Part shown: piece after piece, positions 12,669 through 46,418 of the stretch
How the letters are laid out: each line of letters begins with the position of its first letter
How positions within the stretch are numbered: position 1 is the stretch's first letter
NCBI RefSeq assembly: GCF_045636185.1
Contig: NZ_JAZTXC010000109.1
Span: 3,187 to 67,186 of the forward strand
Reading direction: 5' to 3'
Source: Methanobrevibacter sp.
GTDB lineage: Archaea; Methanobacteriota; Methanobacteria; Methanobacteriales; Methanobacteriaceae
DNA: 64,000 nucleotides
Position numbers and translations under genes: made by a program
The notes under the pieces: model-generated
The model's database searches: none
Told to the model about the DNA's origin: nothing
The model's input: only the letters and a program-made list of their open reading frames with translations

Positions 12669-12669
12669 A

Positions 12670-13287
12670 ATGGGCAGTAAATGGCAAATGGAGAGAAAAA
12701 GCGATCCATATTACAAAAGAGCAAAAGCAGAAGATTACCGTTCAAGAGCATCTTACAAACTTAAACAATTAGATAAAAAATATAAGATTATAAAACAATC
12801 AAATACCGTTGTTGACCTTGGAGCCGCACCCGGAGGATGGTCACAGGTAGCTTTAGAAAGAGTCGGAGAAGAAGGTATAGTGGTTGGTGTTGACCTCAAT
12901 CATATCAGAGCACTTCCCGAAGAAAATTATTATAGAATAAAAGGAGATTTCACAACACAGGAAGTTCAGGACAAGATTATGCGTGTTATTGGAGGAAAAG
13001 CAAAAGTGGTAATGAGTGATGCTTCTCCAGAATTATGCGGTATTAAAAATCTAGATCAATTAAGGTCCATTGATTTGACAAATGCAGTTATTGGAATAGC
13101 AGATAATATTCTAGAACATAAAGGCAATTTAGTTATGAAAGTATTTCAAGGCCCAGAATATAAAGCTATGCTGGATGGCCTTAAAAAGAAATTTAGACAA
13201 GTTAAAACAACCAAACCTCCATCCTCACGTAAAAAAAGCTCTGAAATGTATGTTGTTGGCTTAGGATATAAACATCGCGTTAAATAA
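12670..13287 (+). CDS. rlmE: 23S rRNA Um2552 2'-O-methyltransferase (RlmE/FtsJ)
   Basis: [31 protein letters not shown] and SRKKSSEMY motifs. The ATG at 12670 directly follows the upstream stop (track start is 12616). Confidence 0.95.
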
Positions 13288-13398: not shown

Positions 13399-15850
13399 AT
13401 GAATAATTTGTTTAATAATTCAGATGATAAACTTGAAAAAAATGAATATCTGAATACAAAGGAATTTAATAAAGATTTAAAATACTGGAATGATATGCTT
13501 TCAGATGCAGAAAAGTATGTGAAATTTTATAACATTAAATCAAATTCATATAAAACCAAAAAAGTAACTCTTAAAAACAAATCACCCCATACTTTTTTAA
13601 ATAAGAATAACATTTCTAGATTTAATTTTATAACTGGAATATTTTCTTTATACTTATCCCGTGTTGACAAAACTCAAGGATGCTTATTTAATACTATCAA
13701 TAAAAATTCCGGTAAAACAACACTATTAAAAATTGATTATGATGAAAATATATCATTTAATGAGCATTTAAGTAAAATAGAATATATTATAAATGAAACA
13801 AAAAAGCATAGCAAAGCAGATATTGAAAATTATACTGATATCAAATCATTTTACTCAATTTATGATTTAACAGACTTAAATAATAATTCCATTGCCAATG
13901 AAGAAAAATGTGCTTTAATACTGAATATCCATAAGGATTCACTGGAATTAATATATAATACTGATTTATTTGAAGAAATTTACATTGACCATATGCTAAT
14001 GAATATTGAATCAGTAATCGATAATGTTCTAAATTCATCAAATCAACTTTGTAAAAATATTCCAATAATAAGTGAAGAAGATAAATCATTAATTGCAGAA
14101 TTTTGTAAAAGTGACAGAGTTGATGTTGATAATGATAAAACAATAGGATTGGCTGTCCATGAAAATGCAATTAAGAATCCTAATAGTATTGCAATAGACG
14201 ATGGAGATAAACAATTAACTTATTTGGAATTTGATAAATTAACAAATTCAATTGCATATGATTTGATTAATAACTATAATATTAATCAAGGAACTCCAGT
14301 CTGCTTAATGATATCACGGAATTATTATTTTCCTGCATTAGTCATAGCGCTTAATAAAATTGGTGCCGCATCCATTCCAATTGATCCAGAATATCCTCAA
14401 AAACGTATTGAACATATGATAAACATCTCCGAATCCCAAAATATCATCATATCTAAAGAATATGAAGATTTATATGATTTTGATATCAACACAATCATCG
14501 CAAATGATTTAGAAACTAATAATAATATTGATTTTGAAATAAAAAGTTCTGGTGATGATTTATTTACCATAATGTTTACTTCAGGTACAACAGGTCTTCC
14601 AAAAGGAGTAAAAATCTCCAATAAACAAATTAGCGGAATAAGTAATGCTTATAGAAAGATATTTGATATTTCCGGAGAAGAAATTATTGGCTGCTATGCA
14701 AGTTTTAGTTTTGTCGGATCTTATGGAATGTATTGGGCATTATACCTTGGTGCAAGTGCTAGAATTTTTAATGAAGATGAGCGGAAAGACAGTTTATTGT
14801 TAATAAAAAAACTTAAAGAAAAACCTATAGATATAATAACTTTACCTCCTAGTGTAGGTATTCCTATTTTTGAAAATGATGATTTGAAAATAAGATATAT
14901 GACATTAGCAGGTGCAAAGATAAATGAATTAGAATATAGGGAAAATTATACAAAACTAGTTAATTTTTATGGGTCAACCGAAGTAATTTTAGCAATTACT
15001 AAAATTTTTGATTTGAAAAATATGGATAAACATATCCCTCTCGGTAAACCACTAAGTAATACCTGGGCATATATTTTAGATAAAAATAATGAACAAGTTC
15101 CTATTGGCGTTCCTGGAGAAATATGCATTTCAAGCGAATATATAAGTCCGGGATATATCAACGATAATTTATCCGACAATAGTTTTATTGATAACCCCCA
15201 CTCTGATTGTGAAAGCAATAAAAGAATGTATAAAACGGGAGATATTGGTTTTTATAATTTTGATGGTGAAATTGAAATCATCGGCCGTGAAGATAATCAA
15301 TTATCCGTTAGAGGTTTTCGTGTAGAAACAAATGAAATAATAAACACGTTAAATAATTTTAATATAAAAGAAAGCTATTTAGATGTAGAAAACGATACAT
15401 TGATATTATATTATACTACAACAGACAATGTAAATATAGATGACATTAAAAACGCTTTAAAAATGGAATTACCTGAATATATGATTCCTTCACTATTTAT
15501 TAAATTAGATAAAATTCCATTAAATGTAAATGGTAAAATAGACAAATTTGCATTGAAAAAAATCGGTGAAAATAACATTAATGAAGATGTTGATGATGAA
15601 ATCCTTAAAACCATTATTGAAGGATTTAAAAAGGTTTTAAACAAAGATTTCATATTAATAGATGATGATTTCGTTGCTTTAGGTGGAAATTCACTATCTT
15701 CAATGAAATTACAACTATATTTAAAAAATGAATTAAATGTAGATATATCCTCCAATAAATTAATCGAATTGTCAACACCACTTAAAATTAGTGACTTTAT
15801 CAAATTTAATTCAAATGAAATAAATAATGAAGTTAATTATACTTTTGATG
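13399..15850 (+). other. NRPS module 1 (starter): truncated C-lobe, divergent A domain, T domain
   Basis: About 215 aa of C-domain-like sequence (KDLKYWNDML; GIFSLYLSR) with no HHxxxD. A domain has FTSGTTG, SFSFVGS, FYGSTE, YKTGD and NGKIDK. T domain has GGNSL. Boundaries approximate. Confidence 0.85.
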
Positions 15851-18800
15851 ACTTATGCCCATTATCCGAATCCCAATTAAATGTTTATTTGGATGAAATT
15901 GCAAATGATGTGGGAAGTGCATATAATAATTCATTCAAAATAAAATTCAATGATTCTTATTCAATTAACGAAATTAAAAGTGCATTAAATAAATTATTTA
16001 AAATCCATCCTATTTTAAAAGCACGTGTTTTAATAGATAATGATGTGCCTTCTTTTTGTTTTGATGGTGAACCAAAAATCATTGAAGGATCCCCAGCAGA
16101 TATTGAAAGCTTTGTACATCCTTTTGAGATAGATAAATATTTATCTCGTTTTTTAATTGTTAAAGAAGGCGAAACATTAATATTATGTATGGATTGTCAC
16201 CATTTAATATTCGACGGAACATCCATTAATATCCTATTAGATAATATATTTGCCATTTTAAATGAAAATATTGATGATTTTGTTGATAATGGAGTTTTAA
16301 GACAGGTTTCATTTGAAGAAAATAATATTATTGACTCCAATTACATGAATGATGGAAAAAAATTCTTTGATGAAATGTTAACTGACAGGGAAGAATGTTA
16401 TGATTTATTATCATCCATAGATAAAGAAAATAAAAATAATGAGTATAACGATTATTTAACAATAGAAAATGAATATTTAGATTCATTTTTACAAGATAAT
16501 TCAATCACATATAACCAATTTTTCACCAGCGTATTTGCTTACACACTATCAAGATTCACCGGTTCATCAAAAGTTCTATTTAATTTAGTTGAAGACGGAA
16601 GAGGACAACTGGATTTATCAAATTCAATAGGAATGTATGTTCGTACATTGCCGTTACTTATTGATTGTAAAAATCAAAACACAAATTCCTTCCTAAAATA
16701 TTCATCAAAATTAGTTAATTCCACCATGAAATATGATTTTTATCCATTCCATATTCTAGCAAATGAATACGATTTAAATTCAGATATAATTTTCCAATTT
16801 GCACAGGATATTTTTTATAAAACAGCCAATAATAAATTTATAAAGTCTATTGAAGAATTAAAACATGATTTTCAGGGCGATATGGCATTTTATATTTTTA
16901 ATTCTGGAGAGGAAAAATATGGAATTAAAATCTTATATTCAGATAAATTTAATAAAAACATGATTAAACGATTTGTAGAAACATACAAACTTATTTTACA
17001 GGAATTTACTAAAGTAAAACAATTATCTGAGATTAATTATACCTTAACATCAGATTTAAAATTATTAGATACAATTAATAAAACAGAACATGAATTAGAA
17101 TACGAAGATATTTTAGATGCATTTAATGATAATCTTTCCAAATATCCCAACAATAAAATTGTATCCTACAAAAATCGTTCATATACATATGCTGAAGTTG
17201 CATACATAGCAAATAAAATAGCCAATTGTTTAAAAGATATGGGCGTTAAAAAACAGGATAATGTTGCATTTATGGTTGAACGTAGCGAATACTATATGTT
17301 CTGTCCATTAACTATACTATCTATGGGAGCCTGTTATGTTCCACTTGATGACAAGCATCCTGATGAGCGTATTGAATTCATATTAAATGACACTCAATCC
17401 AAAGTTGTTATTGTGAGCGATGAAACCTATAAAAGGGTTAAAAACTTGAACAATAATGTTAATCTTTTAAACATTTCAGAATTAATGAAAGAGGATATTG
17501 GAACTTTATCCAATTTAGATGTTGATTATGGAGAGCTAACCTGTATTCTGTATACAAGCGGTACTACAGGTGTTCCTAAAGGTGTTAAAATAACTAGAAA
17601 ATCCCTTGTTAACTTAGCTGAAGTTTATCGGGACAAATATGAATTAACCAATAATGATATTTATGGCCTATTTTCAACAATTGGTTTTGATGCTGCATTA
17701 TTAGCAATAGTTACTGTTTTATACAGTGGTGCATGTTTATCCATTATTCCAAATGACATCAGATTAGATATAGAAAAAATGAATGAATATTTCATAAACC
17801 ACGGTGTTACTCATACATTAATTACAACACAGGTTGGAAAATTATTCATAGAAAATGTAATCCACACTTCACTAAAAGTTTTACTTGTGGGTGGAGAAAA
17901 ATTAGGTGAATTCGAAAGTCCGAAAGATTATACTTTAGTTGATGCATTTGGTCCGACAGAAGCTTGTGTATTCATTTCTTCAATTAAAAATATTGATAAA
18001 ATAGATTCTTCTTCAATAGGCCCATTAAGTTATAATACTAAAGCTTATGTATTAGATGATGAACTTAGACGTGTACCGCTAGGTGCTATCGGAGAATTAT
18101 ATATTTCAGGTTACCAACTATCTGATGGATACTTGAACCGTGAAAAAGAAACCGAAGAAGCATTTATAGAAAATCCATTTGAGAATAATGAAAATTATAA
18201 AGTAATGTACTCCAGTGGGGACATGGTTAGAGTATTAAGTGATGGATCATTGGCTATTGTTGGTCGTAGCGATAGTCAAGTAAAAATTAGAGGAAATCGT
18301 GTCGAATTATCAGAAATTGAAGAAGTAATTCGTGAATTAAATCTTATTAAAGATGTTACAATCCAAACTATTGAGAATAATGGTAATAATGAATTAGTAG
18401 CTTATGTTGTTACATCAAATGACGTTGATAACCTTAAAGATTATGTATGCAATCATGTAATTAAAAATAAACCAGAATATATGGTTCCATCATTTGTCAT
18501 CGAAATAGATGAAATTCCATTAAACATCAATGGTAAAGTAAATAAAAAAGCTTTACCGGAAGTTGATTTAGAAAGTTTACATGTTGAATATATTGCTCCA
18601 ACGACAAAAGAAGAAAAAGACATTGTGAATGCATTTAAATCTGTGTATAATCAAGAAAAAATTAGTATTTATGATGATTTTGCTCGATTGGGAGGAGATT
18701 CACTAACTGCCATAAGATTAATATCCAATCTTAAAGAGTATGATATTTCAGCAGCAGATATTTTAAGTTTACGCACACCAAAAGCAATAGCGGAAAATAT

Positions 18801-39800: not shown

Positions 39801-42800
39801 TACAATTTATGGTGATTTAGCCTGTATTTTATACACCAGCGTTACTACAGGTATTCCTAAAGGTGTAAAAATTACCCGAAAGTCCATTTTAAATGTGGCC
39901 GAGTTTTATAAAGACAAATATGGCTTAAGTAATAATGATGTTTATGGATTATTCTCCAACATCAGTTTTGATGCAGCACTTTTAGCTATGATTACTGTTT
40001 TATACTCAGGCGCCTGCTTATCAGTTGTTCCAGATGAGATTAGATTGGATATGAAATCATTGAATGAATATTTCATAGAACAAAATGTAACCCATACTCT
40101 CATTACATCCCAGGTAGGAAGATTATTCATGAAAGAAGTGGATAATACATCATTAAATGTCTTATTTGTTGGTGGTGAGAAATTAGGTGAATTTGAAAGC
40201 CCTGAAGATTACACTTTAGTTGATGCATTCGGACCAACAGAAGCCTGTGTATTCATATCATCAATTGAAAATATTGATAAAACAGATGCATCATCAATAG
40301 GATTTTTAAACTATAACACCAAAGTCTATGTCTTGGATAATGAATTTAGGCGCGTACCTATTGGTGCTGTTGGTGAATTATATGTATCCGGTTATCAAAT
40401 CGCAAACGGATACTTAAATAGAGAAGAAGAAACTAACAATGCATTTTTAGATAATCCTTTCGATGAAGGGGATTATAATGAAATGTATCGTAGTGGAGAT
40501 ATGGTAAGAATATTGAATGACGGTTCATTAAGTATTGTAGGCCGTCGTGACGGACAGGTTAAAATCAGAGGAAACCGTGTAGAATTATCTGAAATTGAAA
40601 CAGTTATCCGTGAATTAGATTATATTAAAGATGTTACAGTACAAACAATTAAAAATAATACGAATAATGAATTAGTTGCTTATGTTGTTGTTTCTAAAAA
40701 AATAGATGACCTTAAAGATAAGATTTGCAAATATGTAGGCGAATCCAAACCTGAATATATGGTTCCGTCCTTTATTATTGAATTAGATGAAATTCCATTA
40801 AATGTGAATGGTAAAGTAAATAAAAAGGCATTGCCTCAAGTTGATTTTGATAGTTTACATACAGAATATGTTGCCCCAACAAGTGAAACTGAAAAGATAA
40901 TAGCACAAGCATTTGAAGATGTATTTAATCAAAAAGATGTTGGATTATATGATGACTTTTTCCATCTTGGTGGAGATTCTATTACAGCAATTCGTGTTAT
41001 TTCATTACTTCAAAAAAATAACATTACCTGTACTGCCAGAGATATATTAAATAATAAAACTCCATACTTAATTGCAAAAAATATTAAAAATATAGAAAAT
41101 ATATCATATGATCCTGTTGAAGGAGAAATAGATTTACTTCCTATTCAAAGTTATTTCTTCGATAAAGTTAACGAAGATGGATTTTCACAAACATTCCTCT
41201 TAAAATCCAAAAAAGATTTGGATATCGATATTTTCCAAGATGCAGTGAATGAGTTAACCAATATTCATGACATGTTGCGTGCAAATTATAAACAGGAAAA
41301 TGAAAAAGTAATTCAGGAAATATTGCCATTAGATAGCAATATTTGTAAAGTGAAAGTCTTTGATGCATCCAATAATCTTAAAGAATCTATTGAAGATATT
41401 TTTAATCAAACCAATGTTTCATTAAACAAGAACAAACTGATTGATATTAATATAATCCGTCATGAAACCGGCTGCTATGTACTTTTCAATATACACCATT
41501 TAATAATTGATGGAGTCAGCTGGAACATTTTAATAAACGATTTAACTCAAATTTATTCCAATTTAGAAGCAAAGCAAGAAGTTAACCTAGTAAGACCATA
41601 TCCTTATAAAAATTGGGTTGAAAATGTGAAAGAATTGGTAAATAACATATCTGATGAAGAAAAACAACATTGGATAAAATTAAACAATCTACTGGATGAT
41701 TCAAATATTAAAGGAAACAGTAATGCATTCGCATTTAATGTTGATGCTAAGTTTGATGCAAATAATTCCTTAATGTTATCTGAAGAAGAATATTTGGCTT
41801 TAGCAATATCTCGAGCATATAAAAAGACATATGGTGAGAATATAATATTCAATCGTGAATCTTATGGTCGTGATGAAAGTTTAGCAGACAATTCAAGAAC
41901 AATTGGTTGGTTTACTAGCCAATACCCAACATTAGTTGAAGTAAATAACGGTTATGATAATATTTCCTTAATGCAGGACATTTATAGCCTTAAACAAGCA
42001 TTCAAAGAGGTAAATTATTTAGGTTTAAATTATTCTTCCTTAATTTATACCACAGAAGAATTAGAATTTAAATATTGTCCAGTTACTTTTAATTTCTTAA
42101 GTACTGAATTCGCTTTCAAAAATGAATTGTTTGAATCAGTAAACTTTAACTCTGAATTAGAAGATGAAATTCATATTAACGAGATTGATTCTACATCATA
42201 TGGTATCAGTTTAAATGTTTCTAGTATTAATAAAGGTTATGTTATAAAAGGAGAATATGCTGGTGAAACTTTTATCGGCGACAGCTTTGATGAATTTGTT
42301 GAGAATATTAAATCAGAATTAAGATTTATAAGTGATTTCGACATAAATCAAAAGGACATTGTTTGTTGTTTATCCGAATCTCAAATGGGTGTTTATTTAG
42401 ATGAAAAAGTAAATGACAAAGGCAATGCGTATGCATGTACTGAAATTTTAAAATGTGATTTAGACAATGAAGAAATTATAAATGCCGTTTATTCCGTAAT
42501 TGATAAACATCCTATTTTAAAAGGACGTATCCTTGACAATGGCGATATGCCTTTATTAGTTTGTGATAATTATCCTTCAATTGAAGAAATTAACACTGAG
42601 AATTATTCTGAATTAGTTAAACCATTTGATTTGAATAAATCACTAGCGGATTTCCATATTATCAATAATGAGAAAGGAAAATTCATATTTTATAATATTC
42701 ATCACTTAATTATTGATGCTACTTCCCGTACAATATTGAATAAGGAAATACAAGAAGCTTTAGAAGGTAAATTAGATGATGTTATTGATTTAGGATTTGT

Positions 42801-45800
42801 CTATAGTAGTATGGACTCTTTTGAATGTAAATTTAAATCCGATTATCGCTCAGCATATGAATTCTTCAATAAAGAATTTGTAGATATGGACAATATTCCA
42901 GAATTATTGGCAGATGTTAGTGAATCTGCAGGCAGAGTTTCCCTCCCTATTAGAAATATTCGCAGCAGTATAGAAGAATACGCCCATAAAAATGGCATTA
43001 CTATAGGTAATTTACTAAATGCAGTATTTGCATATACATATTCACGTTTTACTGGTAGTGACAAAGTTTACTTTAATTTCACAGAGCACGGCAGACATGA
43101 GGATTATAGCAAAAATGCTTTAGGCATGTTTGTTCGTACAATACCAATCATTACTAATTGTAATAATGATTCCACTAAAAATTATTTAATTAATTTTTCA
43201 GATTTAGTTTTAAATTCAATGCAAAACAGTATTTATCCATACAGATTGCTTGCAAATGAGTTTAATTTAAATAATAATGTAATGTTTGAGTATAACTCTG
43301 ATTTAAATGATGTATCATATATTAAAGATGAAATCATTGTAGAAAATTATCCAAATGACTTCGTAAATGAATTTTCTTGCATCATTAATGATTTGAATGA
43401 TGGATATGTTATTCATGTAGAACATTCAAGCAAATATTCTAATGAAACATGCATTAGATTTGCAAAAACATATGAACGAATATTATTTGAAATAATCAAA
43501 GTTAAAGAACTATCCGAAATCAATTACATAACAAAAGAAGATTTAAAACTTTTAGATTCCTATAATGAAACCGAACATCCGCTAAAATATAATGATGTTT
43601 TAGATGCATTTAATGAAAATCTTATTAAATATTGTGAAAATAAACTTGTATCTTTTGAAAATAATTCATACACTTATGGTGAAGGTGCATTTATTGCTGA
43701 AAAAATAGCTAAATCTTTAAAGAATTTAGGTGTTGATAAAGGTGACAATGTTGCATTTTTAGTTAAAAGGTCTGAACTATACATGTTCTCTGTTTTAGGT
43801 ATTATGTCCATAGGTGGAGTCTATGTTCCTTTAGATGATGCTCATCCAGATGAACGTGTTGAATTCATACTAAATGATACAAAATCCAAAGTTATTCTTG
43901 TTAGTGATGAAACCTATAATCGCGTTAATTCTTTAGATAATAATTCAATTATTCTAAACATATCCGATATTTTAAGAGACAATATTGGAACAGTATCTGA
44001 TTTGCCTGTGATTTATAATGATTTGGCTTGTATTTTATACACCAGTGGTACTACAGGCATTCCTAAAGGTGTAAAGATTACAAGAAAGTCCATATTGAAC
44101 TTGTCTGAGTTTTATATCAGAACATTTGGTCTTGGTGAAGATGATGTTTATGCATTATTTGCTTCCATCGGATTTGATGTAGCGATGAAAGCTATATTCC
44201 CAACAATTTCTGCTGGGGCATGCTTGACCATAATTCCTGAAGAAATCAAACTAGATGTGAATGCAATGAATGAATATTTCATTAAGCAAGGTGTAACACA
44301 CACAGAAATATCAACACAGGTAGCTAAAATCTTTATAAGTCAAGTGGATGAAACACCATTGAAAGTTTTAACGACTGGTGGAGAAAAACTAGGAGAAGTT
44401 GAAACAGATGTAGATTATCGTTTTGTAGATGAATATGGTCCGACAGAAGCATGTGTGGATGTAACCAGTATCGATTATGATAACAGAATTGATTCTTCAT
44501 CAATCGGTTTCCTGCTTGACAATATCAAAGCTTATGTATTGGATGATGAGTTCAGACGTGTACCCGTTGGAGCAGCAGGTGAACTATACCTTGCAGGTAA
44601 TCAAATTGCAGACGGATATCTAAATCGTGACGAAGAAACTCAAAAAGCTTTCCTTGAAAATCCATTCGATGAAAGAAAAGAATACAGTGTAATGTATAGG
44701 ACTGGAGATATTGTAAGAGTCTTGGCAGATGGATCACTAGGAATTATTGGACGTCGTGACGGACAGGTAAAAATCAGAGGAAACCGTGTGGAATTAAGTG
44801 AGATAGAAACAATAATACGTAAAATTAATTATGTAGAAGATGTAACAGTCCAAATAGTTAAACATGACACCAATAATGAATTAGTGGCTTATGTAGTGAT
44901 ATCCAACAATTTAGATGACAATTTACTTACAGACTCCATACGCAATTATGTAAATTCCCAAAAACCAGAGTACATGGTTCCTTCATATGTAATTAAATTA
45001 GATGAAATTCCACTAACTGTTAATGGCAAAGTGGATAAAAATGCATTGCCTAAAGTAGATGTGGATAAATTACTTGCCGAGTATGTTACACCAAATACTG
45101 AAACTGAAAAGATAATTGTCAAATCCTTTGAAAATGCATTCAATCAAGAAAGAATTAGTTTATATGACGATTTCATTCGCCTTGGAGGAGATTCAATCAT
45201 AGCTATGAAAATCGTTTCTGATTTATCCAAACAAGATATTAGCATCGATGCCAGAACCTTATTTAAAAATAGAACACCATACAATATTGCCCAAATTATT
45301 GATGGAAACGAAAAAGAATATGGATTTGAATTAGCCAGAAAAGGTAGTAAAAATCAGAATATGTTCTTATTACCACCAAATTCAGGATTATCATTTATTT
45401 TCTCCACATTAATTAAAAATATTGACTTCGATGGAAATATTTACATAATTGACGATTATAGATACGAATTAACAATAGAAGAAATTGAGAAAATTAATGG
45501 TACTGAAATCGCATTTGAAAAGTATTATGAAGCCATTAAAGACATTTTCCAAGATGGAGATATAATTGTTGGGTATTCACATGGATGTATCTTCGCACCA
45601 TTAATTTGTGAACGCTTAGAAAAAAGCAAATATGTAGATAAATGTGTTCTTATAGATGGACTCCTGAAATTTAGTGAAAAAAGCAACTATGATGAAACAA
45701 AAATTAATCAACTAAAAGAAGATGCAGAAGTATTATTAAAAGATGCGGCAGAATATGAAAATGATGAGGAATTGAAAAATAAATTGATAAGCGTAGCCAT

Positions 45801-45987
45801 AAGTAATTCTGAATGGAATTTCAAAAAACCAAAAGTCAAATCACATGTTATTTATTTATCTACAACAAATAAATGCAAAAAAGAATTGAAAGAAATTTCT
45901 TCAAACTATGAATATCATAATATTGATACTACACACGGAGACATTATTAAAAAAGACCTGCATAAAATCAACAAATATTTAAAATAA
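13399..45987 (+). CDS. Giant 10-module non-ribosomal peptide synthetase (10,862 aa) with two epimerisation domains and a terminal thioesterase
   Basis: Ten A-domain P-loops (Ser codons at 14581, 17557, 20566, 23572, 27790, 30796, 33799, 36832, 39838, 44044). Ten GG(D/N)S carrier sites (Ser codons at 15691, 18700, 21715, 24721, 28936, 31936, 34948, 37981, 40978, 45193). Nine HHxxxD C-domain motifs, two E domains, and a GYSHG thioesterase at 45571-45585. Confidence 0.97.
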   Translation: MNNLFNNSDDKLEKNEYLNTKEFNKDLKYWNDMLSDAEKYVKFYNIKSNSYKTKKVTLKNKSPHTFLNKNNISRFNFITGIFSLYLSRVDKTQGCLFNTINKNSGKTTLLKIDYDENISFNEHLSKIEYIINETKKHSKADIENYTDIKSFYSIYDLTDLNNNSIANEEKCALILNIHKDSLELIYNTDLFEEIYIDHMLMNIESVIDNVLNSSNQLCKNIPIISEEDKSLIAEFCKSDRVDVDNDKTIGLAVHENAIKNPNSIAIDDGDKQLTYLEFDKLTNSIAYDLINNYNINQGTPVCLMISRNYYFPALVIALNKIGAASIPIDPEYPQKRIEHMINISESQNIIISKEYEDLYDFDINTIIANDLETNNNIDFEIKSSGDDLFTIMFTSGTTGLPKGVKISNKQISGISNAYRKIFDISGEEIIGCYASFSFVGSYGMYWALYLGASARIFNEDERKDSLLLIKKLKEKPIDIITLPPSVGIPIFENDDLKIRYMTLAGAKINELEYRENYTKLVNFYGSTEVILAITKIFDLKNMDKHIPLGKPLSNTWAYILDKNNEQVPIGVPGEICISSEYISPGYINDNLSDNSFIDNPHSDCESNKRMYKTGDIGFYNFDGEIEIIGREDNQLSVRGFRVETNEIINTLNNFNIKESYLDVENDTLILYYTTTDNVNIDDIKNALKMELPEYMIPSLFIKLDKIPLNVNGKIDKFALKKIGENNINEDVDDEILKTIIEGFKKVLNKDFILIDDDFVALGGNSLSSMKLQLYLKNELNVDISSNKLIELSTPLKISDFIKFNSNEINNEVNYTFDDLCPLSESQLNVYLDEIANDVGSAYNNSFKIKFNDSYSINEIKSALNKLFKIHPILKARVLIDNDVPSFCFDGEPKIIEGSPADIESFVHPFEIDKYLSRFLIVKEGETLILCMDCHHLIFDGTSINILLDNIFAILNENIDDFVDNGVLRQVSFEENNIIDSNYMNDGKKFFDEMLTDREECYDLLSSIDKENKNNEYNDYLTIENEYLDSFLQDNSITYNQFFTSVFAYTLSRFTGSSKVLFNLVEDGRGQLDLSNSIGMYVRTLPLLIDCKNQNTNSFLKYSSKLVNSTMKYDFYPFHILANEYDLNSDIIFQFAQDIFYKTANNKFIKSIEELKHDFQGDMAFYIFNSGEEKYGIKILYSDKFNKNMIKRFVETYKLILQEFTKVKQLSEINYTLTSDLKLLDTINKTEHELEYEDILDAFNDNLSKYPNNKIVSYKNRSYTYAEVAYIANKIANCLKDMGVKKQDNVAFMVERSEYYMFCPLTILSMGACYVPLDDKHPDERIEFILNDTQSKVVIVSDETYKRVKNLNNNVNLLNISELMKEDIGTLSNLDVDYGELTCILYTSGTTGVPKGVKITRKSLVNLAEVYRDKYELTNNDIYGLFSTIGFDAALLAIVTVLYSGACLSIIPNDIRLDIEKMNEYFINHGVTHTLITTQVGKLFIENVIHTSLKVLLVGGEKLGEFESPKDYTLVDAFGPTEACVFISSIKNIDKIDSSSIGPLSYNTKAYVLDDELRRVPLGAIGELYISGYQLSDGYLNREKETEEAFIENPFENNENYKVMYSSGDMVRVLSDGSLAIVGRSDSQVKIRGNRVELSEIEEVIRELNLIKDVTIQTIENNGNNELVAYVVTSNDVDNLKDYVCNHVIKNKPEYMVPSFVIEIDEIPLNINGKVNKKALPEVDLESLHVEYIAPTTKEEKDIVNAFKSVYNQEKISIYDDFARLGGDSLTAIRLISNLKEYDISAADILSLRTPKAIAENINENSFDLDVYSLDDGCPLNEPQLNVYLDIIANNKYDSYIIPVKMNISKKYSKENLCNALQEMLNVHPILNMCISDEFEVPYLVKGKKPEIGIKSEIDDELLNKFLTERFDLHNSLSRFLIIENDDKYNLYGVFHHLIFDGLSKNAFKKDLLSILNGNLVDVDDSFLKISAFNEQIQEKEQFNDAKNFYDIMLADNDEVSVLLDDAVDNESGTYTINLDKNIKEFIRNKNIGENILFTSVFAYTLSRFTGSEKVLFNIVENGRDRLNNYNSIGMYVNTLPLLVDCKNQSITEFINYMQDLVYNVMRYNYYPFRFLANEYNIDSNIIFQYQPKWFNETNNDENAITEDMINNMTGFINDLNTAVIEKEDSYELNITYSDKYSKNTIEHIAKTYKLILSQIIEINELSDINLTAEEDIKLLNSYNKTECTLKYGDIIKEFNNNLLRHEDKILVGYEDESYTYGESAFIVNEIANELTNMGIIKQDYVSLFVERSEWYLLASLGVLTIDSIYVPIEATYPDERIILMLKDTQSKVVIVTDKTEQKMLKIILDNDLNVDVLNVSQITDEEIGSLTNLNSIEVGENDIGCVLYTSGTTGTPKGSLITRKAINNFVSWYVEETNFTSEDTYGMHCSYVFDIHTAALYAPIITGGSLYVVPEDIRLNLKALNDYYVEHECTHTYITSQVGKLFAESGMKTTIKLLCFGGMKLGELNAPDSIGPFETYGPSENLAVSTSIWANKRIHHTSIGRFISNVKGYVLDNEHRRVPLGAVGELYLAGHQLSKGYLNRAKENEKAFFDNPFDYEKGYEKIYSTGDMVRFLPDGTIAIVDRRDNQVKIRGNRVELPEVESAIRRIDYVDDVTVQIIDNKGNNELVAYVVVSNELTGDALENSIKKYVSQHKPDYMVPSFIIGLDEIPLNVNGKVDKKALPKVDLDSLRAEYVAPRNEIEKDIVKAFEEVFNQEKISINDDFSRLGGDSLTAIKLLSNLKDYNLSAADILSLNTPKAIAENINECSFNFDKYSIERGCPLNEPQLNVYLDIIANNKIDSYLIPLNMNIPKRYSGENIHNALNEMINVHPILNMCVSDEFNVPYLVKGNKPEISIKSEIDDETLNKFLKQPFDLYESLCRFLIIENNDENIVYAVFHHLIFDGLSETVFKKDLLALLDNETVDIDNSFLKVSAFNQQIQQAKEYEIAKEFYDLMLADNEDANNLLDDISTDGPGVYRIELNKNIGETIKKNNINENVLFTGVFAYTLSRFTGSEKVLFNIVENGRDRFGNFNSIGMYVNTLPLLVDCKNQSSLNFIKYMSELIYDVIRYNYYPFRLLSNEYNINSSIIFQYVPDWFGENSNESNADIIKDMTDFISDLSVDVVQNKDKYSLNIMYSDKYCENTIKHFAKTYELILYQIISAEKLSDIDIITDGDIKLLDSYNQTQEEVSCNDILDAFNANLPEHENDILIGYEGNVYTHGQCAFVANEIANKLGDLGAKSQDFISLFVNRSEWYLLASMGILSMGGAYVPIDTSYPNERIILMLKDSHSKAVIVTDESEQKIRDIILENDLNVDVLNVSDLINDNIGSLNHLYNTAISENDIGSLLYTSGTTGIPKGVKITRKAINNFVSWYVKETNFTSQDVFGLHSSYVFDMHTHGLFAPVISGGSLYVVPEDIRLDLKALNDFFIEHNCTHTFITTQIGKLFAESGMDTTIKLLCLGGMTLGELNAPDSIGPLEIYGPSENLAVSTSIPANKRIHHTSIGGFIDNVKGYVLDNEHRRVPLGAVGELYLAGHQLTPGYLNNKEENAKAFFDNPFDNEKGYERIYKTGDIVRFLSDGTLGFVGRRDNQVKIRGNRVELPEVESVIRSIDYVDDVTVQAINNKGNNELVAYVVVSNESTGDALANLIKDYVSQHKPDYMIPSFIINLDEIPLNVNGKVDKKALPEVDLDSLRAEYVAPVTETQKIIVNAFEIIFNQENISLYDDFIRLGGDSIKSIRLISMLQNDNISCTAQDILNYKTPYLIAKNVEEVSHVSYDAVEGIVDLHPIQSYFFDQINKNEYNQHYILKSTEKIELNKLQSAFDELTNIHDMLRATYRFEDNEPIQEILPVNTRVCEINEIYSDDDINSSIRSIFRDIHNKLNYENNLIHITLFHHNNESYVIFVIHHLIIDGVSWSILIDDLSYIYYKIGSKNKISLPRPYPYKLWVNDVKELANNISDEEKQHWLELNESLDDSKLCGKSIVYSLKAENYYNPDNLLMLSEEEYWALSIARAYKKTYGENLILNRESYGRDETLANVSRTIGWFTTQYPVSLDLINDYDNISLILDVYNLKNSFKNINNLGLNYGSLIYGSDELEYKHCPLTFNFLSTEFIFKNRLFESLNIFLSEDNINKSEFESTSYGITVNIASVDDEYIIGGDYAKNTYIAEKINLFFENLKSELKFIGNYQFDEGLTCCLSEPQLGIYLDEKIEEKGTAYSNPGYYECDLNTTREEIINAIHTLIEKHPILKGHIVDTPNMPLLVCDSYPSIEFNEVTDIFEIIEPFELDKLLVRFYISIDENNKTIYYDIHHIISDATTRAIINKELDEILNKNSDDKIDYGFIKASYDAFDSKYKKQYQEAYDFFNNQFNDLDDVPELLTDIGGQAGIVTYPIHNIRSQFEAFAHENNITIGSLLNAIFAYSYSRLIGSDKVYFNFTEHGRHEDYSQDAFGMFVRTIPLLINCKNTSTKDYLNQVSDLILDSMLHSIYPYRLLANEFDLKNNVTFEYNYDLNDTSDIENGIKFKEMNYNLVSEFLCVINDLDDGYLITVEHTDKYSKDTIIRFVEVFKEVMTQIINKDALKDINYITNRDLKLLDEFNDTKHDLDYNDILDAFNNNLSKYPNSNLTKVNNKVYTYGEGAFIANKIAEELKKLGVNSQDNVAFLVNRSGNYLFSILSILSVGGIYVPLDNTLPDERIEFILKDTDPKVIIVSDETYERAEGLSKNCIILNIDRILNQENGTLFKLDVEYGDLACILYTSGTTGLPKGVNITRKAVINMSSYYVDTYGLSNADNYGLFANIGFDAGSLGVFAAIYAGSCLYVVPDNIKLNINEMNEYFIEHGITHTFITTQVGKLFVQSVENTSLKVLLVGGEKLGAIESPDDYNLIDIYGPTETFVFVSSINNKDKITSSSVGSLSYNTKAYILDNEKRPVPYGAVGELYLSGYQTSKYYINRRKENKKAFIDNPFSDDENYKLLYRTGDLVRLLPDGTLSVEGRRDKQVKIRGNRVELSEIESTIRDLKLIKDVTVQTIQDKSYCKLVAYVVTSGDLNENSIAKYVSNHISKNKPDYMVPSFIIPLDKIPLNPNGKVDKNALPEINLESLHGEYVAPITKNEKMIVDAFEAVFHKKISMNDDFIQLGGDSLTAIKVLLHMEGQNITAREILSLRTPKNIAENINEESFDLDIYSLESGCPLNEPQLNVYLDIIANNKMNAYIIPFSMSIPKKYDYDKIADSLDKMLEIHPILNMCVDDSTDIPYLIKGHGPEILFKSENDKEFIDEFLTKEFDLHSSLSRYLIIENENEYRLYAVFHHLIFDALSNNVFKQDLLSIFNNEKIDVDDSFLEVSAYTQQIQKIEEYTQAEEFYDSMLTDIEDAGTLLNDVNGNNSGVYHLNLEFDDKSIDELINKYSINENILFTSIFAYTLSRFTGSEKTLFNILENGRDRLNNYNAIGMYVNTIPLVANCENQDIQSYMDSMSNLIYDAMKYNYYPFRTLAKKYGIDSSIIFQYIPNWVSGVDSSTHITEVNGENNINTDSPINDFSFEVIQECNSFILRITYSDKYSKETIERFAETYKLILSEITKVKELSNINCITEDDLKLLNSYNDTEYELKYNDVLDAFNNNLIKYPKNKLVSFENNSYTYDEGAFISKQLADHLKDSGVNIGENVAFLTKRSESYLFSILGILSVGAVYVPLEEKLPEERVNFILNDANIKVIITDDENYERVENTTDNIKIINISDILNDKIEKISHLDSTYSDLACILYTSGTTGIPKGVKITRKAIINFVEFYINDSGLNSDDIFALYSSIGFDVGAIKSVLSPVCCGACLDIIPEDIKLDIHKLNKHFIKNNVTHTNITTQVAKLFINSIEETSLKVLVTGGEKLGEVKTPANYRFIDNYGPTEACVSVTNIDVNKKIDSTSIGYLINNTKGYVLDNEFRQVPVGAVGELYLAGNQIAEGYLNRDKETEEAFLRNPFDEEYDMMYRTGDMVRFLPDGTLAIVDRRDKQVKIRGNRVELSEVESIIHEFDNIIDVTVQTIDNNENKELVAYVVTKEKINDLKDSLCKFIAKNKPDYMVPSFVIELDEIPLNINGKVDKKALPEVDLESLRAEYIAPRNKIEKDITNAFEKVFNQEKISITDDFMTLGGDSLTAIKLLSNLEDYNISAADILSLRTPKAIAENINNISLDLDIYSLEDGCPLNESQLNVYLDIIANNKVSAYLIPLEMRISKEYDIEEISNTLDKMLEVHPILSMCVSDEYDMPLLIKGSKPQIIIENEINDEFTNNFLTKSFDLYENLSRFLIIETEEDYKLIAVFHHMIFDGLSDGVFKQDFATILNGGIVNVDDSFLKVSAFNKQIQDSNEYDDAGKFYDEMLVDSDEISVLLDSALSDGPGVCQSDLEIDYNTFKSFLDTKGISENVIFTSTFAYTLSRFVGSEKVLFNITENGRDRFNNYNSIGMYVNTLPILADCKNQTTASFIDYMSKTIYGAMKYNYYPFRVLANKYNLNSSILFQFLPDWIGLDDENISEIEVSPENIINDMEDFITDLSVNIIQKGESYVINILYSEKYSKDMIEHFIESYKLIISQLISVNELSAISYVCDDDLKLLDSYNETEHPLKYNDILDAFNDNLAHNPDNKLVCYKDRFYSYGEGAFIANEIGTALKDLDIGLDDKVAFLVERSELYMFSILGILSAGAVYVPLDDAHPDERIEFMLKDNDTKAIIVCDSTYERVCSLANDTVLLNISDILKKDISESSDLSVNYGNLSCILYTSGTTGVPKGVKITRKSVINFSEFYAKHYGLTKYDVFALYASIGFDVAMESIFASIFSGACLNIIPNEIKLDMNAMNSHFMKHNVTFAHLPAQVAKLFISQTNNTSLKVLCAGGEKLGEIETDTNYKFFDTYGPTETFIDVTSINIEDKVDASSIGHLFDNTKAYVLDNEKRRVPLGAVGELYIAGYQVAEGYLNRDEETNNAFLDNPFVDNKDYNIMYRSGDLARVLPDGSLGIVGRNDNQVKIRGNRVELSEIETTIREIDYVDDVTVQTVKHDTNNELVAYVVVSNDLDGNILKDSIHNHVGKHKPEYMIPSYVIKLDSIPLNVNGKVDKNALPVVNFDSLQREYVAPITDNEKIIINAFEEVFNQDKISLYDDFVHLGGDSLIAIKILSHLDNHNITAADILSLRTPYAIANAIGGKSFDLDIYNLDTGCPLNEPQLNVYLDIIANDKVDSYIIPIIMDISKEYDVNEIFNALETMINLHPILGMCVDNDYDIPYLVKGSKPNISLENNITKGFITEFLTKPFDLYNSLCRFSIVENKDKYLLLAAFHHIIFDALSDSIFKQHLQTILDGGIVKPDESFLEVSAFTQQIHESEEYNEAHKFYDKMLADNDEVGILLDSVMADGPSVCQSDLEIDYNLFKSFLDTNEVSENVLFTSVFAYTLSRFVGSDKVLFNITDNGRDRFNNYNAIGMYVNTLPMLVDCKTQDISSFINYMSDIVYGVMKYNYYPFRQLAKEYNIDSNILFQFLPEWISNDNETPAEIESISEESIIGEMDDLINDLTVEVIQRGQKYNLIIMHSDKYSKAMVERFIDSYKLILSQIIHVDKLSDIEYITKSDLEILNEINQTESDLEFNDILDAFNSNLLKYENKILLGYGNNSYTYGESAFIAQEIADRLNNLGVYSQECVALFVNRSEWYLLASMGVLSINGIYVPIESTYPDDRIILMLRDSGSNVVIASDETEQRINKIISDNNLDIDVLNVSDITNNISSLNHLNTVEVNEKDISCVLYTSGTTGTPKGSLTTRKAINNFVSWYVKETEFTCNDIYGMHCSYVFDIHTAALYAPIVTGGSLYIVPDDIRLDLNALNEFYVKHGCTHTYITSQVGKLFAESGMDTTIKLLCFGGMKLGELNAPDSIGPFETYGPSENLAVSTSIFANSRIHHSSIGYFIDNVKGYILDKEHRRVPLGAVGELYLAGHQLTPGYLNREEENSKSFFDNPFDNEKDYEKIYSTGDIVRLLPDGTLGIVGRRDSQVKIRGNRVELTEVESVIRSISDVEDVTVQTIQNNDNNELVAYIVASNDLEDNELVNYVRDYVNKHKPDYMVPTYVIRLDEIPLNVNGKVDKRALPDVDLESLRAEYVAPRNETEREIIEAFETVFNQDQIGIYDDFIGLGGDSLTAIKLLSHLEDYNITAADILSLHTPKAIAENIKNIQMDLDIYSLEEGCPLNEAQLNVYLDIIANNKYNVYLIPLRMEISKEYAIKEIEDALDTMINIHPILGMRISDEYEVPYLIKGSKPLVSINSNDDEEFIINFVNESFDLHDNLCRFLIVENESDYILYAVFHHIIFDALSDNVFKQDMKNILEGNELKVDDSFLKVSAFTQQIQESEEYGEAGEFYDEMLVDNEEVGILLESELSDRPGFKQINLDIDYDIFKSFLNENAISENALFTSAFAYTLSRFVGSDKVLFNITDNGRDRFNNYNAIGMYVNTLPMLVDCKTQDTTSFINYMSDILYGVMKYDYYPFRQLANEYNIDSNILFQFMPEWIENEDKTSDEITEESINENIDELINDFTAEVIQKGRNYTLIIMHSDKYSKSMIERFINSYKLILSQMIKVNELSDINYVSKSDLELLEDINKTEHPLIFEDLLDAFNNNLAKYPDNNLVSYKDVCYTYGESAFIADKIAKQLTHLGVKSQDNVAFYTQRSEYYLLSALSILSIGAVYVPLDDNLPDERIKLILEDTEAKVIIVDDETCEDAVNLFGDYMILNASEIIKNNKGTLSNLPTIYGDLACILYTSVTTGIPKGVKITRKSILNVAEFYKDKYGLSNNDVYGLFSNISFDAALLAMITVLYSGACLSVVPDEIRLDMKSLNEYFIEQNVTHTLITSQVGRLFMKEVDNTSLNVLFVGGEKLGEFESPEDYTLVDAFGPTEACVFISSIENIDKTDASSIGFLNYNTKVYVLDNEFRRVPIGAVGELYVSGYQIANGYLNREEETNNAFLDNPFDEGDYNEMYRSGDMVRILNDGSLSIVGRRDGQVKIRGNRVELSEIETVIRELDYIKDVTVQTIKNNTNNELVAYVVVSKKIDDLKDKICKYVGESKPEYMVPSFIIELDEIPLNVNGKVNKKALPQVDFDSLHTEYVAPTSETEKIIAQAFEDVFNQKDVGLYDDFFHLGGDSITAIRVISLLQKNNITCTARDILNNKTPYLIAKNIKNIENISYDPVEGEIDLLPIQSYFFDKVNEDGFSQTFLLKSKKDLDIDIFQDAVNELTNIHDMLRANYKQENEKVIQEILPLDSNICKVKVFDASNNLKESIEDIFNQTNVSLNKNKLIDINIIRHETGCYVLFNIHHLIIDGVSWNILINDLTQIYSNLEAKQEVNLVRPYPYKNWVENVKELVNNISDEEKQHWIKLNNLLDDSNIKGNSNAFAFNVDAKFDANNSLMLSEEEYLALAISRAYKKTYGENIIFNRESYGRDESLADNSRTIGWFTSQYPTLVEVNNGYDNISLMQDIYSLKQAFKEVNYLGLNYSSLIYTTEELEFKYCPVTFNFLSTEFAFKNELFESVNFNSELEDEIHINEIDSTSYGISLNVSSINKGYVIKGEYAGETFIGDSFDEFVENIKSELRFISDFDINQKDIVCCLSESQMGVYLDEKVNDKGNAYACTEILKCDLDNEEIINAVYSVIDKHPILKGRILDNGDMPLLVCDNYPSIEEINTENYSELVKPFDLNKSLADFHIINNEKGKFIFYNIHHLIIDATSRTILNKEIQEALEGKLDDVIDLGFVYSSMDSFECKFKSDYRSAYEFFNKEFVDMDNIPELLADVSESAGRVSLPIRNIRSSIEEYAHKNGITIGNLLNAVFAYTYSRFTGSDKVYFNFTEHGRHEDYSKNALGMFVRTIPIITNCNNDSTKNYLINFSDLVLNSMQNSIYPYRLLANEFNLNNNVMFEYNSDLNDVSYIKDEIIVENYPNDFVNEFSCIINDLNDGYVIHVEHSSKYSNETCIRFAKTYERILFEIIKVKELSEINYITKEDLKLLDSYNETEHPLKYNDVLDAFNENLIKYCENKLVSFENNSYTYGEGAFIAEKIAKSLKNLGVDKGDNVAFLVKRSELYMFSVLGIMSIGGVYVPLDDAHPDERVEFILNDTKSKVILVSDETYNRVNSLDNNSIILNISDILRDNIGTVSDLPVIYNDLACILYTSGTTGIPKGVKITRKSILNLSEFYIRTFGLGEDDVYALFASIGFDVAMKAIFPTISAGACLTIIPEEIKLDVNAMNEYFIKQGVTHTEISTQVAKIFISQVDETPLKVLTTGGEKLGEVETDVDYRFVDEYGPTEACVDVTSIDYDNRIDSSSIGFLLDNIKAYVLDDEFRRVPVGAAGELYLAGNQIADGYLNRDEETQKAFLENPFDERKEYSVMYRTGDIVRVLADGSLGIIGRRDGQVKIRGNRVELSEIETIIRKINYVEDVTVQIVKHDTNNELVAYVVISNNLDDNLLTDSIRNYVNSQKPEYMVPSYVIKLDEIPLTVNGKVDKNALPKVDVDKLLAEYVTPNTETEKIIVKSFENAFNQERISLYDDFIRLGGDSIIAMKIVSDLSKQDISIDARTLFKNRTPYNIAQIIDGNEKEYGFELARKGSKNQNMFLLPPNSGLSFIFSTLIKNIDFDGNIYIIDDYRYELTIEEIEKINGTEIAFEKYYEAIKDIFQDGDIIVGYSHGCIFAPLICERLEKSKYVDKCVLIDGLLKFSEKSNYDETKINQLKEDAEVLLKDAAEYENDEELKNKLISVAISNSEWNFKKPKVKSHVIYLSTTNKCKKELKEISSNYEYHNIDTTHGDIIKKDLHKINKYLK
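15851..18840 (+). other. NRPS module 2 C-A-T, code about DALLLGAVFK (hydrophobic)
   Basis: CHHLIFDG at 16195-16218, GFDAALL, AFGPTEACVF and GGDSL. Code read by manual alignment to GrsA. Confidence 0.85.
18841..21855 (+). other. NRPS module 3 C-A-T, code about DIAYCGTAVK (unassigned)
   Basis: HHLIFDG at 19201, VFDIHTA, CFGGMK, TYGPSENLAV and GGDSL. Confidence 0.85.
21856..26100 (+). other. NRPS module 4 C-A-T-E, code about DMHFCGIAVK (unassigned, D-residue)
   Basis: HHLIFDG at 22216, VFDMHTH and GGDSI. E motifs: PIQSYFF (24883), HHLIIDGVSW (25240), ESYGRDE, RTIGWFTTQYP, LGLNYG, FNFL. Confidence 0.88.
26101..29075 (+). other. NRPS module 5 C(DCL-like)-A-T, code about DALFLGIVFK (aliphatic)
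   Basis: HHIISDA at 26446, EHGRHE...GMFVRTIP, GFDAGSL, IYGPTETFVF and GGDSL. Confidence 0.85.
29076..32075 (+). other. NRPS module 6 C-A-T, code about DV(I/K)NVGNVSK (polar?)
   Basis: HHLIFDA at 29437, GFDVGAIK (one-residue insertion), NYGPTEACVS and GGDSL. Confidence 0.85.
32076..35088 (+). other. NRPS module 7 C-A-T, code about DVEHCGTIDK (polar/basic?)
   Basis: HHMIFDG at 32437, GFDVAME, TYGPTETFID and GGDSL. Confidence 0.85.
35089..38120 (+). other. NRPS module 8 C-A-T, code about DIAYCGTAVK (same as module 3)
   Basis: HHIIFDA at 35449, VFDIHTA, CFGGMK, TYGPSENLAV and GGDSL. Confidence 0.85.
38121..42360 (+). other. NRPS module 9 C-A-T-E, code about DALLFGAVFK, P-loop Gly-to-Val
   Basis: HHIIFDA at 38482, YTSVTTG at 39832-39852, SFDAALL and GGDSI. 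E motifs: PIQSYFF (41140), HHLIIDGVSW (41494), RTIGWFTSQYP. Confidence 0.88.
42361..45987 (+). other. NRPS module 10 C(DCL-like)-A-T-TE, code about DVKETGEVDK (polar/charged)
   Basis: HHLIIDA at 42700, GFDVAMK, EYGPTEACVD and GGDSI. TE has PPNSG, GYSHG (Ser codon 45577), LIDG and THG (His codon 45934). Confidence 0.88.
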
Positions 45988-45998
45988 AAAGAAAAAGA

Positions 45999-46418
45999 TT
46001 AAAGATTATCGAATGCGTGTTGAGCATCGGCTAATTTTTGATTAGCGAAAGTTATTCTACTATCAATTTCATTCGATGGTTTGTTAGCATCAAGCCCTGA
46101 TTGAACATTATCAATAGCCGATTGTGCCCTCGAAAGTTCTAATCTAGCATCATTATATTTTTGAACATCATCTGCACCACCAGCATAAAAAGTTGATTTA
46201 ACAGAGTCAAATTGTGATTCCAAATTAGAATATTTTGATCTCAATTGGGCCAAATCATCATATTGATTTCCTGATGAAATTTGGTCAGTGATTGATTTAT
46301 TAACAATACTATAACCGGAAAATCCAACAAGAACTATTAGAAAAATGATTGAAATAATCCCAACAATGGAAATTAACATTGAAGTAGATTTAAATAAGTT
46401 TAATCTAGATTTTCTCAT
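45999..46418 (-). CDS. Membrane-anchored helical hypothetical protein
   Basis: N-terminal TM helix (ISIVGIISIIFLIVLVGF) followed by an amphipathic/coiled-coil segment. Convergent with the NRPS across an 11-bp gap. Confidence 0.8.
   Translation of the reverse strand: MRKSRLNLFKSTSMLISIVGIISIIFLIVLVGFSGYSIVNKSITDQISSGNQYDDLAQLRSKYSNLESQFDSVKSTFYAGGADDVQKYNDARLELSRAQSAIDNVQSGLDANKPSNEIDSRITFANQKLADAQHAFDNL

Follow-up and report, generated by a model that had tools for sequence, protein, structure and literature searches.

A ten-module non-ribosomal peptide synthetase gene, apparently intact, in a Methanobrevibacter genome

Can a single gene of a methanogenic archaeon encode a complete ten-module peptide assembly line, or does such a gene, when retrieved from a metagenome-assembled genome (MAG), betray decay, misassembly or bacterial DNA joined to an archaeal contig? 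This question is raised by an open reading frame (ORF) of 10,862 codons located at positions 13399-45987 (+ strand) of a 64,000-nucleotide stretch of Methanobrevibacter sp. DNA (assembly GCF_045636185.1, contig NZ_JAZTXC010000109.1). This whole stretch is hereafter called the window, and its coordinates are used throughout unless another contig is named. The encoded protein displays the domains of a non-ribosomal peptide synthetase (NRPS), and we consider it probable that the gene is an intact, chromosomally integrated type I NRPS, from an NRPS family that diversified within gut Methanobacteriaceae. Judged from its sequence, the enzyme is probably functional.

Domain order of the synthetase

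The frame runs uninterrupted over 32.6 kb with zero internal stops, and an open frame of this length in DNA of approximately 29% GC cannot be attributed to chance. Within the gene, the GC fraction varies between 0.27 and 0.32, versus 0.28-0.36 in the flanks. Pfam detected 10 AMP-binding, 10 PP-binding and 12 Condensation stretches in the translated ORF, and motif spacing is as expected for the order half-C-A1-T1-(C-A-T)x3-E-(C-A-T)x5-E-C-A-T-TE, where A, T, C, E and TE denote adenylation, carrier, condensation, epimerisation and thioesterase domains, respectively. A motif scan located HHxxxD at 11 sites (amino acids (aa) 934, 1935, 2940, 3948, 4350, 5347, 6347, 7351, 8362, 9366 and 9768), and all nine condensation domains that stand between successive modules possess it (9/9). 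The carrier serine of GGxS was found at 10 sites (aa 761, 1764, 2769, 3771, 5176, 6176, 7180, 8191, 9190 and 10595), the phosphopantetheine serine of GG(D/N)S being present in the carrier of each of the ten modules. The equivalent of Lys517 is retained in 10/10 A domains and the core motifs A3-A10 were found, with the exception of the A3 motif of the ninth A domain (A9), discussed below. All the sequence elements that characterize a type I modular NRPS are present: adenylation, carrier, condensation and release domains in the protein, and a phosphopantetheinyl transferase (PPTase) in the genome (a 217-aa ORF of the Sfp type on contig C72; PF01648, 55.7 bits, and AASDHPPT_N).

Two domains, E4 (24850-26142, +; aa approx. 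3822-4222) and E9 (41104-42396, +; aa approx. 9241-9641), are of the epimerisation type. Indeed, among the C/E-type domains, the motifs RTIGWFTxQYP and HHLIIDGVSW are confined to these two, which also carry PIQSYFF, ESYGRDE, LGLNY and FNFLS, variant forms of motifs E1-E7. Both match the NCBIfam model NF004282 at positions approx. 2780-3144 (91-102 bits), a segment that presumably represents the E domain of that model, given its domain order, whereas ordinary C domains match a different segment (approx. 779-1149, 20-30 bits). In a tree that also includes C and E domains from two giant NRPSs related to this one, E4 and E9 fall within a 100/100 E clade. The C domains that follow them, C5 (26056-27348, +; HHIISDATT) and C10 (HHLIIDATS, in the C10-A10-T10 block at 42310-45303, +), are 57% identical to each other versus 30-35% to other C domains, and share a 100/100 clade made up exclusively of post-E C domains from three NRPSs. 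E-specific motifs are thus followed in both places by a distinct class of C domain, as in a cassette of an E domain and a C domain for D-configured donors (DCL type). The carrier core reads GGDSI in T4, T9 and T10, GGDSL in T2, T3 and T5-T8, and GGNSL in T1. GGDSI is the E-partner variant of this core, and the domain logic fits a working line, since the carriers preceding E domains have GGDSI and the post-E C domains form a class of their own.

The identity of the terminal 223 aa (45316-45984, +) was resolved by fold search alone, as Pfam, NCBIfam and PDB sequence searches all remained below threshold: the Pfam thioesterase match reached 19.6 bits versus a cut-off of 26.4, and the PDB sequence search gave E = 0.5 to the T-TE fragment of EntF (3TEJ). 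An AlphaFold2 (AF2) model with a predicted local distance difference test score (pLDDT) of 71.9, the four other models being at 43-53, has as best structural matches the T-TE structures of EntF and AB3403 and the thioesterases of Vlm2, SrfA (SrfTE), SulM and NocB. S10727 (within GYSHG), D10753 and H10846 are invariant in an alignment with six homologs. The modelled fold and the conservation of this triad together confirm the domain as an NRPS-type TE, a divergent type I thioesterase.

A sequence-only reading of the window had proposed a ten-module colinear NRPS in a methanogen, and the ORF, the Pfam counts and the motif spacing bear this out. The motif scan located all ten of its carrier serines and HHxxxD in its nine C domains; its E domains behind modules 4 and 9 are upheld by the motifs, the NF004282 match and the tree, and its terminal thioesterase with Ser/Asp/His by the AF2 fold and the invariant residues. 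The same reading had the line open with an A-T starter: A1-T1 is present as claimed, but the start is not bare, because a His-less half C domain precedes A1.

The starter module and the predicted product

This N-terminal half condensation domain (aa 1-231; 13399-14091, +) lacks HHxxxD. Its Pfam Condensation match is restricted to profile positions 404-454, it aligns to C2 from approximately 38 residues past the HHxxxD of C2, and an AF2 model (pLDDT 79.7) matched C domains in Foldseek with TM-scores of 0.63-0.75 by query (TMq) and approx. 0.4 by target (TMt), the latter against isolated whole C domains. We interpret the segment from these comparisons as about half a C domain, read as its C-terminal lobe, without the catalytic His. 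The half C is conserved in nine homologs that all start at the same point, and the frame upstream of the NRPS ATG closes after three codons; this is thus a native N-terminus of the family rather than a truncation artefact.

The A1-T1 starter (14104-15801, +) reads FSFVGS, without Asp235, and has a pocket code of approximately VGYTTAFLAK. At the Asp235 position, V, I or G is found in 10/10 members of the starter family, whose pockets are largely hydrophobic. In A domains (GrsA numbering), Asp235 binds the alpha-amino group of the substrate, so that the lack of an acidic residue there argues for a substrate without such a group. Given also the largely hydrophobic pocket, we infer that A1 would load a carboxylic acid other than an alpha-amino acid (keto, hydroxy or other). 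Among the usual marks of A domains loading non-amino acids, A1 shows the replacement of Asp235, and neither a partner ketoreductase (KR) domain nor affinity to aryl or fatty-acid ligases: its nearest PDB relatives are the amino-acid A domains LgrA, GrsA and TycA and not fatty-acyl ligases, and its length is normal (approx. 486 aa), with no inserted domain and hence no KR. Lipoinitiation would involve a complete C-starter domain with the catalytic His motif, whereas only half a C domain without HHxxxD is found. The 'lipopeptide-like' product of the sequence-only reading is accordingly disfavoured, as there is no complete starter C domain and A1 resembles A domains of the amino-acid type.

C2 (15808-17100, +), a divergent condensation domain that would take the starter unit as donor, shares 38-43% identity with the C domains of the main group, compared with 33-34% for those of the post-E group; in the tree, it is the sister lineage of the post-E class (support 96/69), a position to which a long-branch warning applies. 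Dozens of full-length homologs of the starter module (800 aa), 49-61% identical, are spread over the genus and two sister genera, and the same genome contains four paralogs. The genomes matched belong to Methanobacteriaceae, and the database matches with a source name are Methanobrevibacter. Homologs with at least about 50% identity over these 800 aa place the window NRPS in the half-C/Asp235-less starter family. A degenerate pattern of the A1 pocket peptide had no match in a metagenome scan.

Pocket codes were extracted by hand rather than with a predictor, against a GrsA reference segment that was verified by its reproducing DAWTIAAICK. The stretch from A2-T2 through C3-A3-T3 to C4-A4-T4 (17113-24831, +) yields DALLLGAVFK, DIAYCGTAVK and DMHFCGIAVK for its three A domains; that from A5-T5 and then C6-A6-T6 through C9-A9-T9 (27349-41088, +) yields DALFLGIVFK (A5), DVKNVGNVSK (A6), DVEHCGTIDK (A7), DIAYCGTAVK (A8) and DALLFGAVFK (A9), and A10 has DVKETGEVDK. 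The codes of A2, A5 and A9 presumably resemble Leu-type codes, a resemblance that we treat as no more than a lead. A3, A4 and A8 form a subfamily, 72-76% identical to each other, and the acidic pocket residues of A7 suggest a basic substrate. Six of the ten codes were sought in the searchable literature, with no occurrence. The resulting pattern (non-amino starter, hydrophobic, Y, D-Z, hydrophobic, polar, polar/basic, Y, D-hydrophobic, polar) reproduces the one predicted in the sequence-only reading.

A route to the product can be proposed from this architecture. The Sfp-type PPTase of the genome would prime the ten carrier domains, and A1 would put a non-alpha-amino carboxylic acid (keto, hydroxy or other) onto T1, with the His-less half C before it acting as a structural platform that performs no catalysis. 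C2 would couple this cap to residue 2 (Leu-like pocket), and seven further condensations would follow, during which E4 and E9 would epimerise the chain on T4 and T9, and C5 and C10 would hand on the D-configured intermediates. The TE (Ser10727/Asp10753/His10846) would then free a chain of 1 + 9 units, the first being the cap, in which residues 4 and 9 are D-configured. A cap without an amine would make a head-to-tail lactam impossible, and release would therefore proceed by hydrolysis or by cyclisation via a side chain or a starter hydroxyl. The sequence data show which domains and motifs are present and in what order, the archaeal surroundings, the limits of the insertion and the family to which the gene belongs, from which the substrates, the activity, the mode of release and any ecological role are inferred.

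One codon stands out along this line: GTT (Val) at 39841-39843 (+), which gives A9 the P-loop TSVTTG where TSGTTG is expected. Among 654 A domains from 120 giant NRPSs, this position is Gly in 645 cases, Arg in nine and Val in none. The Val of A9 may be deleterious, may be tolerated or may reflect an error in one base. The nine Arg-bearing P-loops occur in otherwise intact proteins of the Methanobrevibacter-like family (among P0001-P0025), and the family may deviate repeatedly at this site, perhaps in modules that are inactive or skipped.

Chromosomal setting and relatives

The host is a Methanobrevibacter of the M. millerae group, with an MCM 95-99% identical to those of ruminant Methanobrevibacter MAGs including M. 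millerae, and its genome is a 193-contig MAG of 2.29 Mb (96.5% complete, 4.55% estimated contamination). To the left of the NRPS gene lies an FtsJ-like rRNA methyltransferase gene (12616-13287, +; PF01728, 192.7 bits; orthologs in relatives 80-97% identical). To the right, the convergent gene of a conserved 139-aa membrane protein (45999-46418, -), 11 nt from the NRPS stop, is followed by an archaeal MCM helicase gene (46539-48545, +; Pfam MCM and MCM_WH_arc; Methanobrevibacter orthologs 82-99%). The flanking genes, which encode PurP, a metallophosphoesterase, FtsJ, archaeal MCM, NMD3, TyrRS, Lhr, NucS, NadA, thymidylate kinase and others, are syntenic with two complete genomes.

Compared with the empty FtsJ-MCM site of the complete genome G004, the window carries a 32.7-kb insertion at 13275-45980 (+). 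By blastn, 12103-13274 and 45981-48552 align with this site at 84-86% and the stretch between them is missing in G004. The insert begins just past the stop codon of FtsJ, ends at that of the NRPS ORF and holds a leader of approximately 124 nt and the NRPS ORF, with no other gene; the 139-aa membrane-protein gene is also present at the empty site of G004 and G109. The only repeat at the junctions is a trivial AAATAA. Insertion as a mobile element was considered and rejected, as there is no integrase, no tRNA and no target duplication beyond AAATAA.

The FtsJ-MCM gap is empty (554-1,254 bp) in G004, G008 (both complete), G109, G110 and G112, measures 2.4-2.7 kb in G105, G106 and G107, approximately 15 kb in G104 and 33.3 kb in the window, and is split across contigs in G103. 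Two near relatives, G103 and G104 (MCM identity 98-99%), have an unrelated NRPS (26-27% identity) in this neighbourhood. It measures 3,196 aa in G104 (contig C89, L115, 2509-16658) and, divided between two contigs, at least 7,252 aa in G103 (C5, L116 and L120; C56, L119); with it come a MatE pump of 559 aa, an aldo/keto reductase and two ORFs of approximately 300 aa. As this unrelated cluster sits on the other side of the membrane-protein gene, the FtsJ-MCM neighbourhood must have been hit independently at least twice.

No ortholog of the exact gene above about 61-70% identity was found in the genomes of relatives or in the protein database. In a large protein database, whose listed lengths ended near 7,900 aa so that giants may not be held, aa 1-2500 matched at no more than 57% among proteins of at least 5,445 aa, and aa 1-1000 at no more than 59% among proteins of 550-1,750 aa. 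The best matches (45-57%) are Methanobrevibacter wherever the source is named; a few without a source name follow at 31-37%, while named bacterial giant NRPSs are about 25-28% identical and shorter bacterial ones at most 32%. P0061, a non-archaeal giant NRPS of approximately 27% identity, is annotated to Anaeromyces robustus, an anaerobic fungus of the rumen. The database searches brought up no close homolog whose product is known, which agrees with what the sequence-only reading had stated.

That reading also presented the size as unprecedented and NRPS genes as rare in archaea, and neither view holds. Relatives carry same-family ORFs of 10,816 aa (G008, complete, 2,273,296 bp; 9 modules, 3 E domains), 11,200 aa (G107 and G051; 9 modules and 4 E domains in G107) and 19,183 aa, the last being an open frame with many NRPS modules on contig C5 of G050/G103 (approx. 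14.6-72 kb), from a MAG, which, if real, would be among the largest prokaryotic ORFs. These giants are 50-57% identical to the 10,862-aa protein along its length and share with it GGDSI before E, HHLI(V/I)DGVS in E, HHxIxDAT(S/T) in the post-E C domains and the GYSxG of the TE. Those of G008 and G107 differ in having an N-terminus of approximately 900 aa before the first A3 motif, versus the 231-aa half-C starter here; located at other chromosomal sites, they are not orthologs. As for rarity, 687 NRPS clusters were counted in 125 rumen archaeal genomes (approx. 3.8 per genome), solely in Methanobrevibacter and with a patchy distribution (PMC8241843), and approximately nine further NRPS ORFs exist in the present genome. 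With the 10,862-aa gene, these amount to approximately 36,357 aa, or approximately 4.8% of the 2.29 Mb. The 'new class of archaeal natural product' was likewise an overclaim, the enzyme being a member of a genus-wide uncharacterised family. In our reading, it is a species-specific, apparently intact member of this large Methanobacteriaceae family.

Methanobrevibacter NRPSs were first reported in 2010, in M. ruminantium (PMC2812497), seven proteins of at least 5,000 aa are known from Methanobrevibacter sp. YE315 (PMC11573180), and the products of archaeal NRPSs were still unidentified as of 2021 (PMC8024701). Compared by description only, the window NRPS is like mru0068 and mru0351 of M. ruminantium M1 a multimodular NRPS of rumen Methanobrevibacter (PMC2812497). 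However, the M1 enzymes, with two and four modules, lie beside a MatE exporter, and mru0351 terminates in a reductase (structure of the carrier-reductase pair, PCP-R, in PMC8024701), whereas the window NRPS counts ten modules, includes two E domains and a TE, opens with a half-C/non-amino-acid starter and lacks a linked exporter. The catalogue of Anderson & Fernando 2021 (PMC8241843) deals with the same genus, habitat and class of biosynthetic gene cluster, and with the same situation of many clusters per genome distributed patchily among close relatives; it stays at the level of cluster similarity, without the architecture, starter module and insertion site of this gene. Among the Firmicutes, LgrA, GrsA/TycA and SrfA-C are the PDB entries that match the A, C and T-TE domains best, and they share the T-E-DCL logic, but LgrA starts with a formylation domain and the window NRPS with a His-less half C and an Asp235-less A domain.

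Alternative explanations and the wider family

NRPSs are typically bacterial, and a bacterial origin has been inferred for those of archaea (PMC2812497, PMC8241843), so that bacterial DNA could have been mis-binned into the archaeal contig or chimerically joined to it. This explanation is effectively refuted. Indeed, genes for PurP, FtsJ, archaeal MCM, NMD3 and TyrRS flank the NRPS on the same contig, its composition matches that of the flanks, its best homologs are Methanobrevibacter wherever a source is named, whereas named bacterial NRPSs do not exceed 28-32%, and the starter-module family extends across Methanobacteriaceae genera; the archaeal host of the sequence-only reading is upheld by these housekeeping genes on both sides, by synteny and by composition. 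A short-read assembler could also have mis-joined or mis-ordered modules of paralogous NRPS genes, from the same or co-resident strains. In favour of such an error, the genome is a MAG of 193 contigs in which the remaining NRPS ORFs, at 50-64% identity, mostly run into contig ends; no second, independent copy turned up, the exact FtsJ-NRPS junction was absent from a metagenome scan, and a 136-nt patch in C8 (35788-35923, +) is 95% identical (7 differences) to 38821-38956 in C9. Being the best 150-nt window in a gene whose modules are otherwise about 70-75% identical, this patch looks like a local gene-conversion tract. However, self-blastn gave at most 75.5% DNA identity between module pairs and internal exact repeats all shorter than 40 nt (longest 31-39 nt), which makes collapse or misassembly unlikely, and the paralogs elsewhere, at no more than 61-70% protein identity, are too divergent to confuse a k-mer graph. 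Moreover, frame and domain grammar are perfect over every junction, both ends meet syntenic archaeal flanks exactly at gene boundaries, and a genome finished as a single contig contains same-family ORFs of equal length. We regard an assembly artefact as very improbable. A duplicated block (modules 2-5/7-10) was also considered and discarded, its 12.6-kb self-alignment at 68.5% not exceeding ordinary module-to-module identity.

Decay is harder to dismiss, even if we judge it unlikely. The gene might be a recently disabled orphan in which module 9 cannot adenylate because of the Gly-to-Val change in its P-loop, and which, with no linked exporter, yields nothing or a truncated product. The TSVTTG of A9 is unique among the 654 A domains, the gene occurs in one MAG only, and the insertion brought no transporter, unlike that of the unrelated NRPS found at this site in G104, which includes a MatE pump. 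Yet 32.6 kb of 29%-GC DNA have remained free of stops and frameshifts, all other checked catalytic motifs are intact, including the rest of A9, E9, C10 and the TE, and nine same-family, otherwise intact proteins have Arg at that P-loop position, so that the deviation may be tolerated; it could also be a single-base consensus error. Several points nonetheless weigh against the interpretation that we prefer, i.e. an intact and chromosomally integrated NRPS. Val at a near-invariant Gly may cripple module 9; the exact gene was found once, in a MAG with 4.55% contamination, and its assembly is unreplicated; the insertion holds no exporter or tailoring gene, and the genome no MbtH gene; the TE model is of moderate confidence (pLDDT 71.9, the others at 43-53); and the substrate assignments are hand-read codes, with none of the six sought appearing in the searchable literature.

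Beyond the intact synthetase itself, we tentatively suggest that the half-C/Asp235-less starter is the mark of an NRPS lineage, encountered here in archaea alone, that extends across gut Methanobacteriaceae. One kind of non-amino carboxylic acid (perhaps an acid from rumen fermentation, or a keto or hydroxy acid) might cap the peptides of every member; the members might have diversified in situ through duplication and conversion of modules, and might be inserted as single-gene cassettes at a few chromosomal hot spots such as FtsJ-MCM. If this were true, the product would be a capped D-residue peptide, a scaffold without bacterial counterpart, and methanogens would have a large hidden metabolite family, which takes up approximately 5% of this genome. 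Rumen methanogens, whose abundant NRPS genes have been known for 15 years, drive livestock methane emissions. Complete, contained in a single ORF and cleanly bounded, the gene has a domain grammar that can be read and an unusual starter that is conserved, and is thereby a practical candidate for heterologous expression and for solving the capping chemistry of the family. The known picture, that such genes exist and are common in Methanobrevibacter, is unchanged; the points of interest are the half-C and Asp235-less starter, the clean single-gene insertion at a reused site and the large share of the genome devoted to NRPSs.

The further NRPS ORFs of this genome (894-5,207 aa; contigs C170, C142, C64, C139, C112, C90, C12 and C75) are in many cases cut by contig ends, and four of them open with the same type of starter module. 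The PPTase ORF shares an overlap with the end of the gene for a serine phosphatase of the SpoIIE type (401 aa; C72, approx. 16.2-19.4 kb), an arrangement that mirrors mru0514/0515 within the PPTase cluster mru0512-0516 of M. ruminantium (PMC2812497) and hints at a partner-switching regulation of NRPS priming. A scan for sigma-70-type promoters near the NRPS start returned four, versus 3.5 expected, with a consensus that is not applicable to archaea. Between MCM and NMD3, a 299-aa ORF (48670-49569, -) has a weak Pfam match to a CoiA-type nuclease (E = 0.0036) and a helix-turn-helix match below the listing threshold. Further to the right, at 53239-58093 (+), two tandem, slightly overlapping paralogs of U32-family peptidases (830 and 796 aa) each carry a DUF3656 'collagenase' domain.

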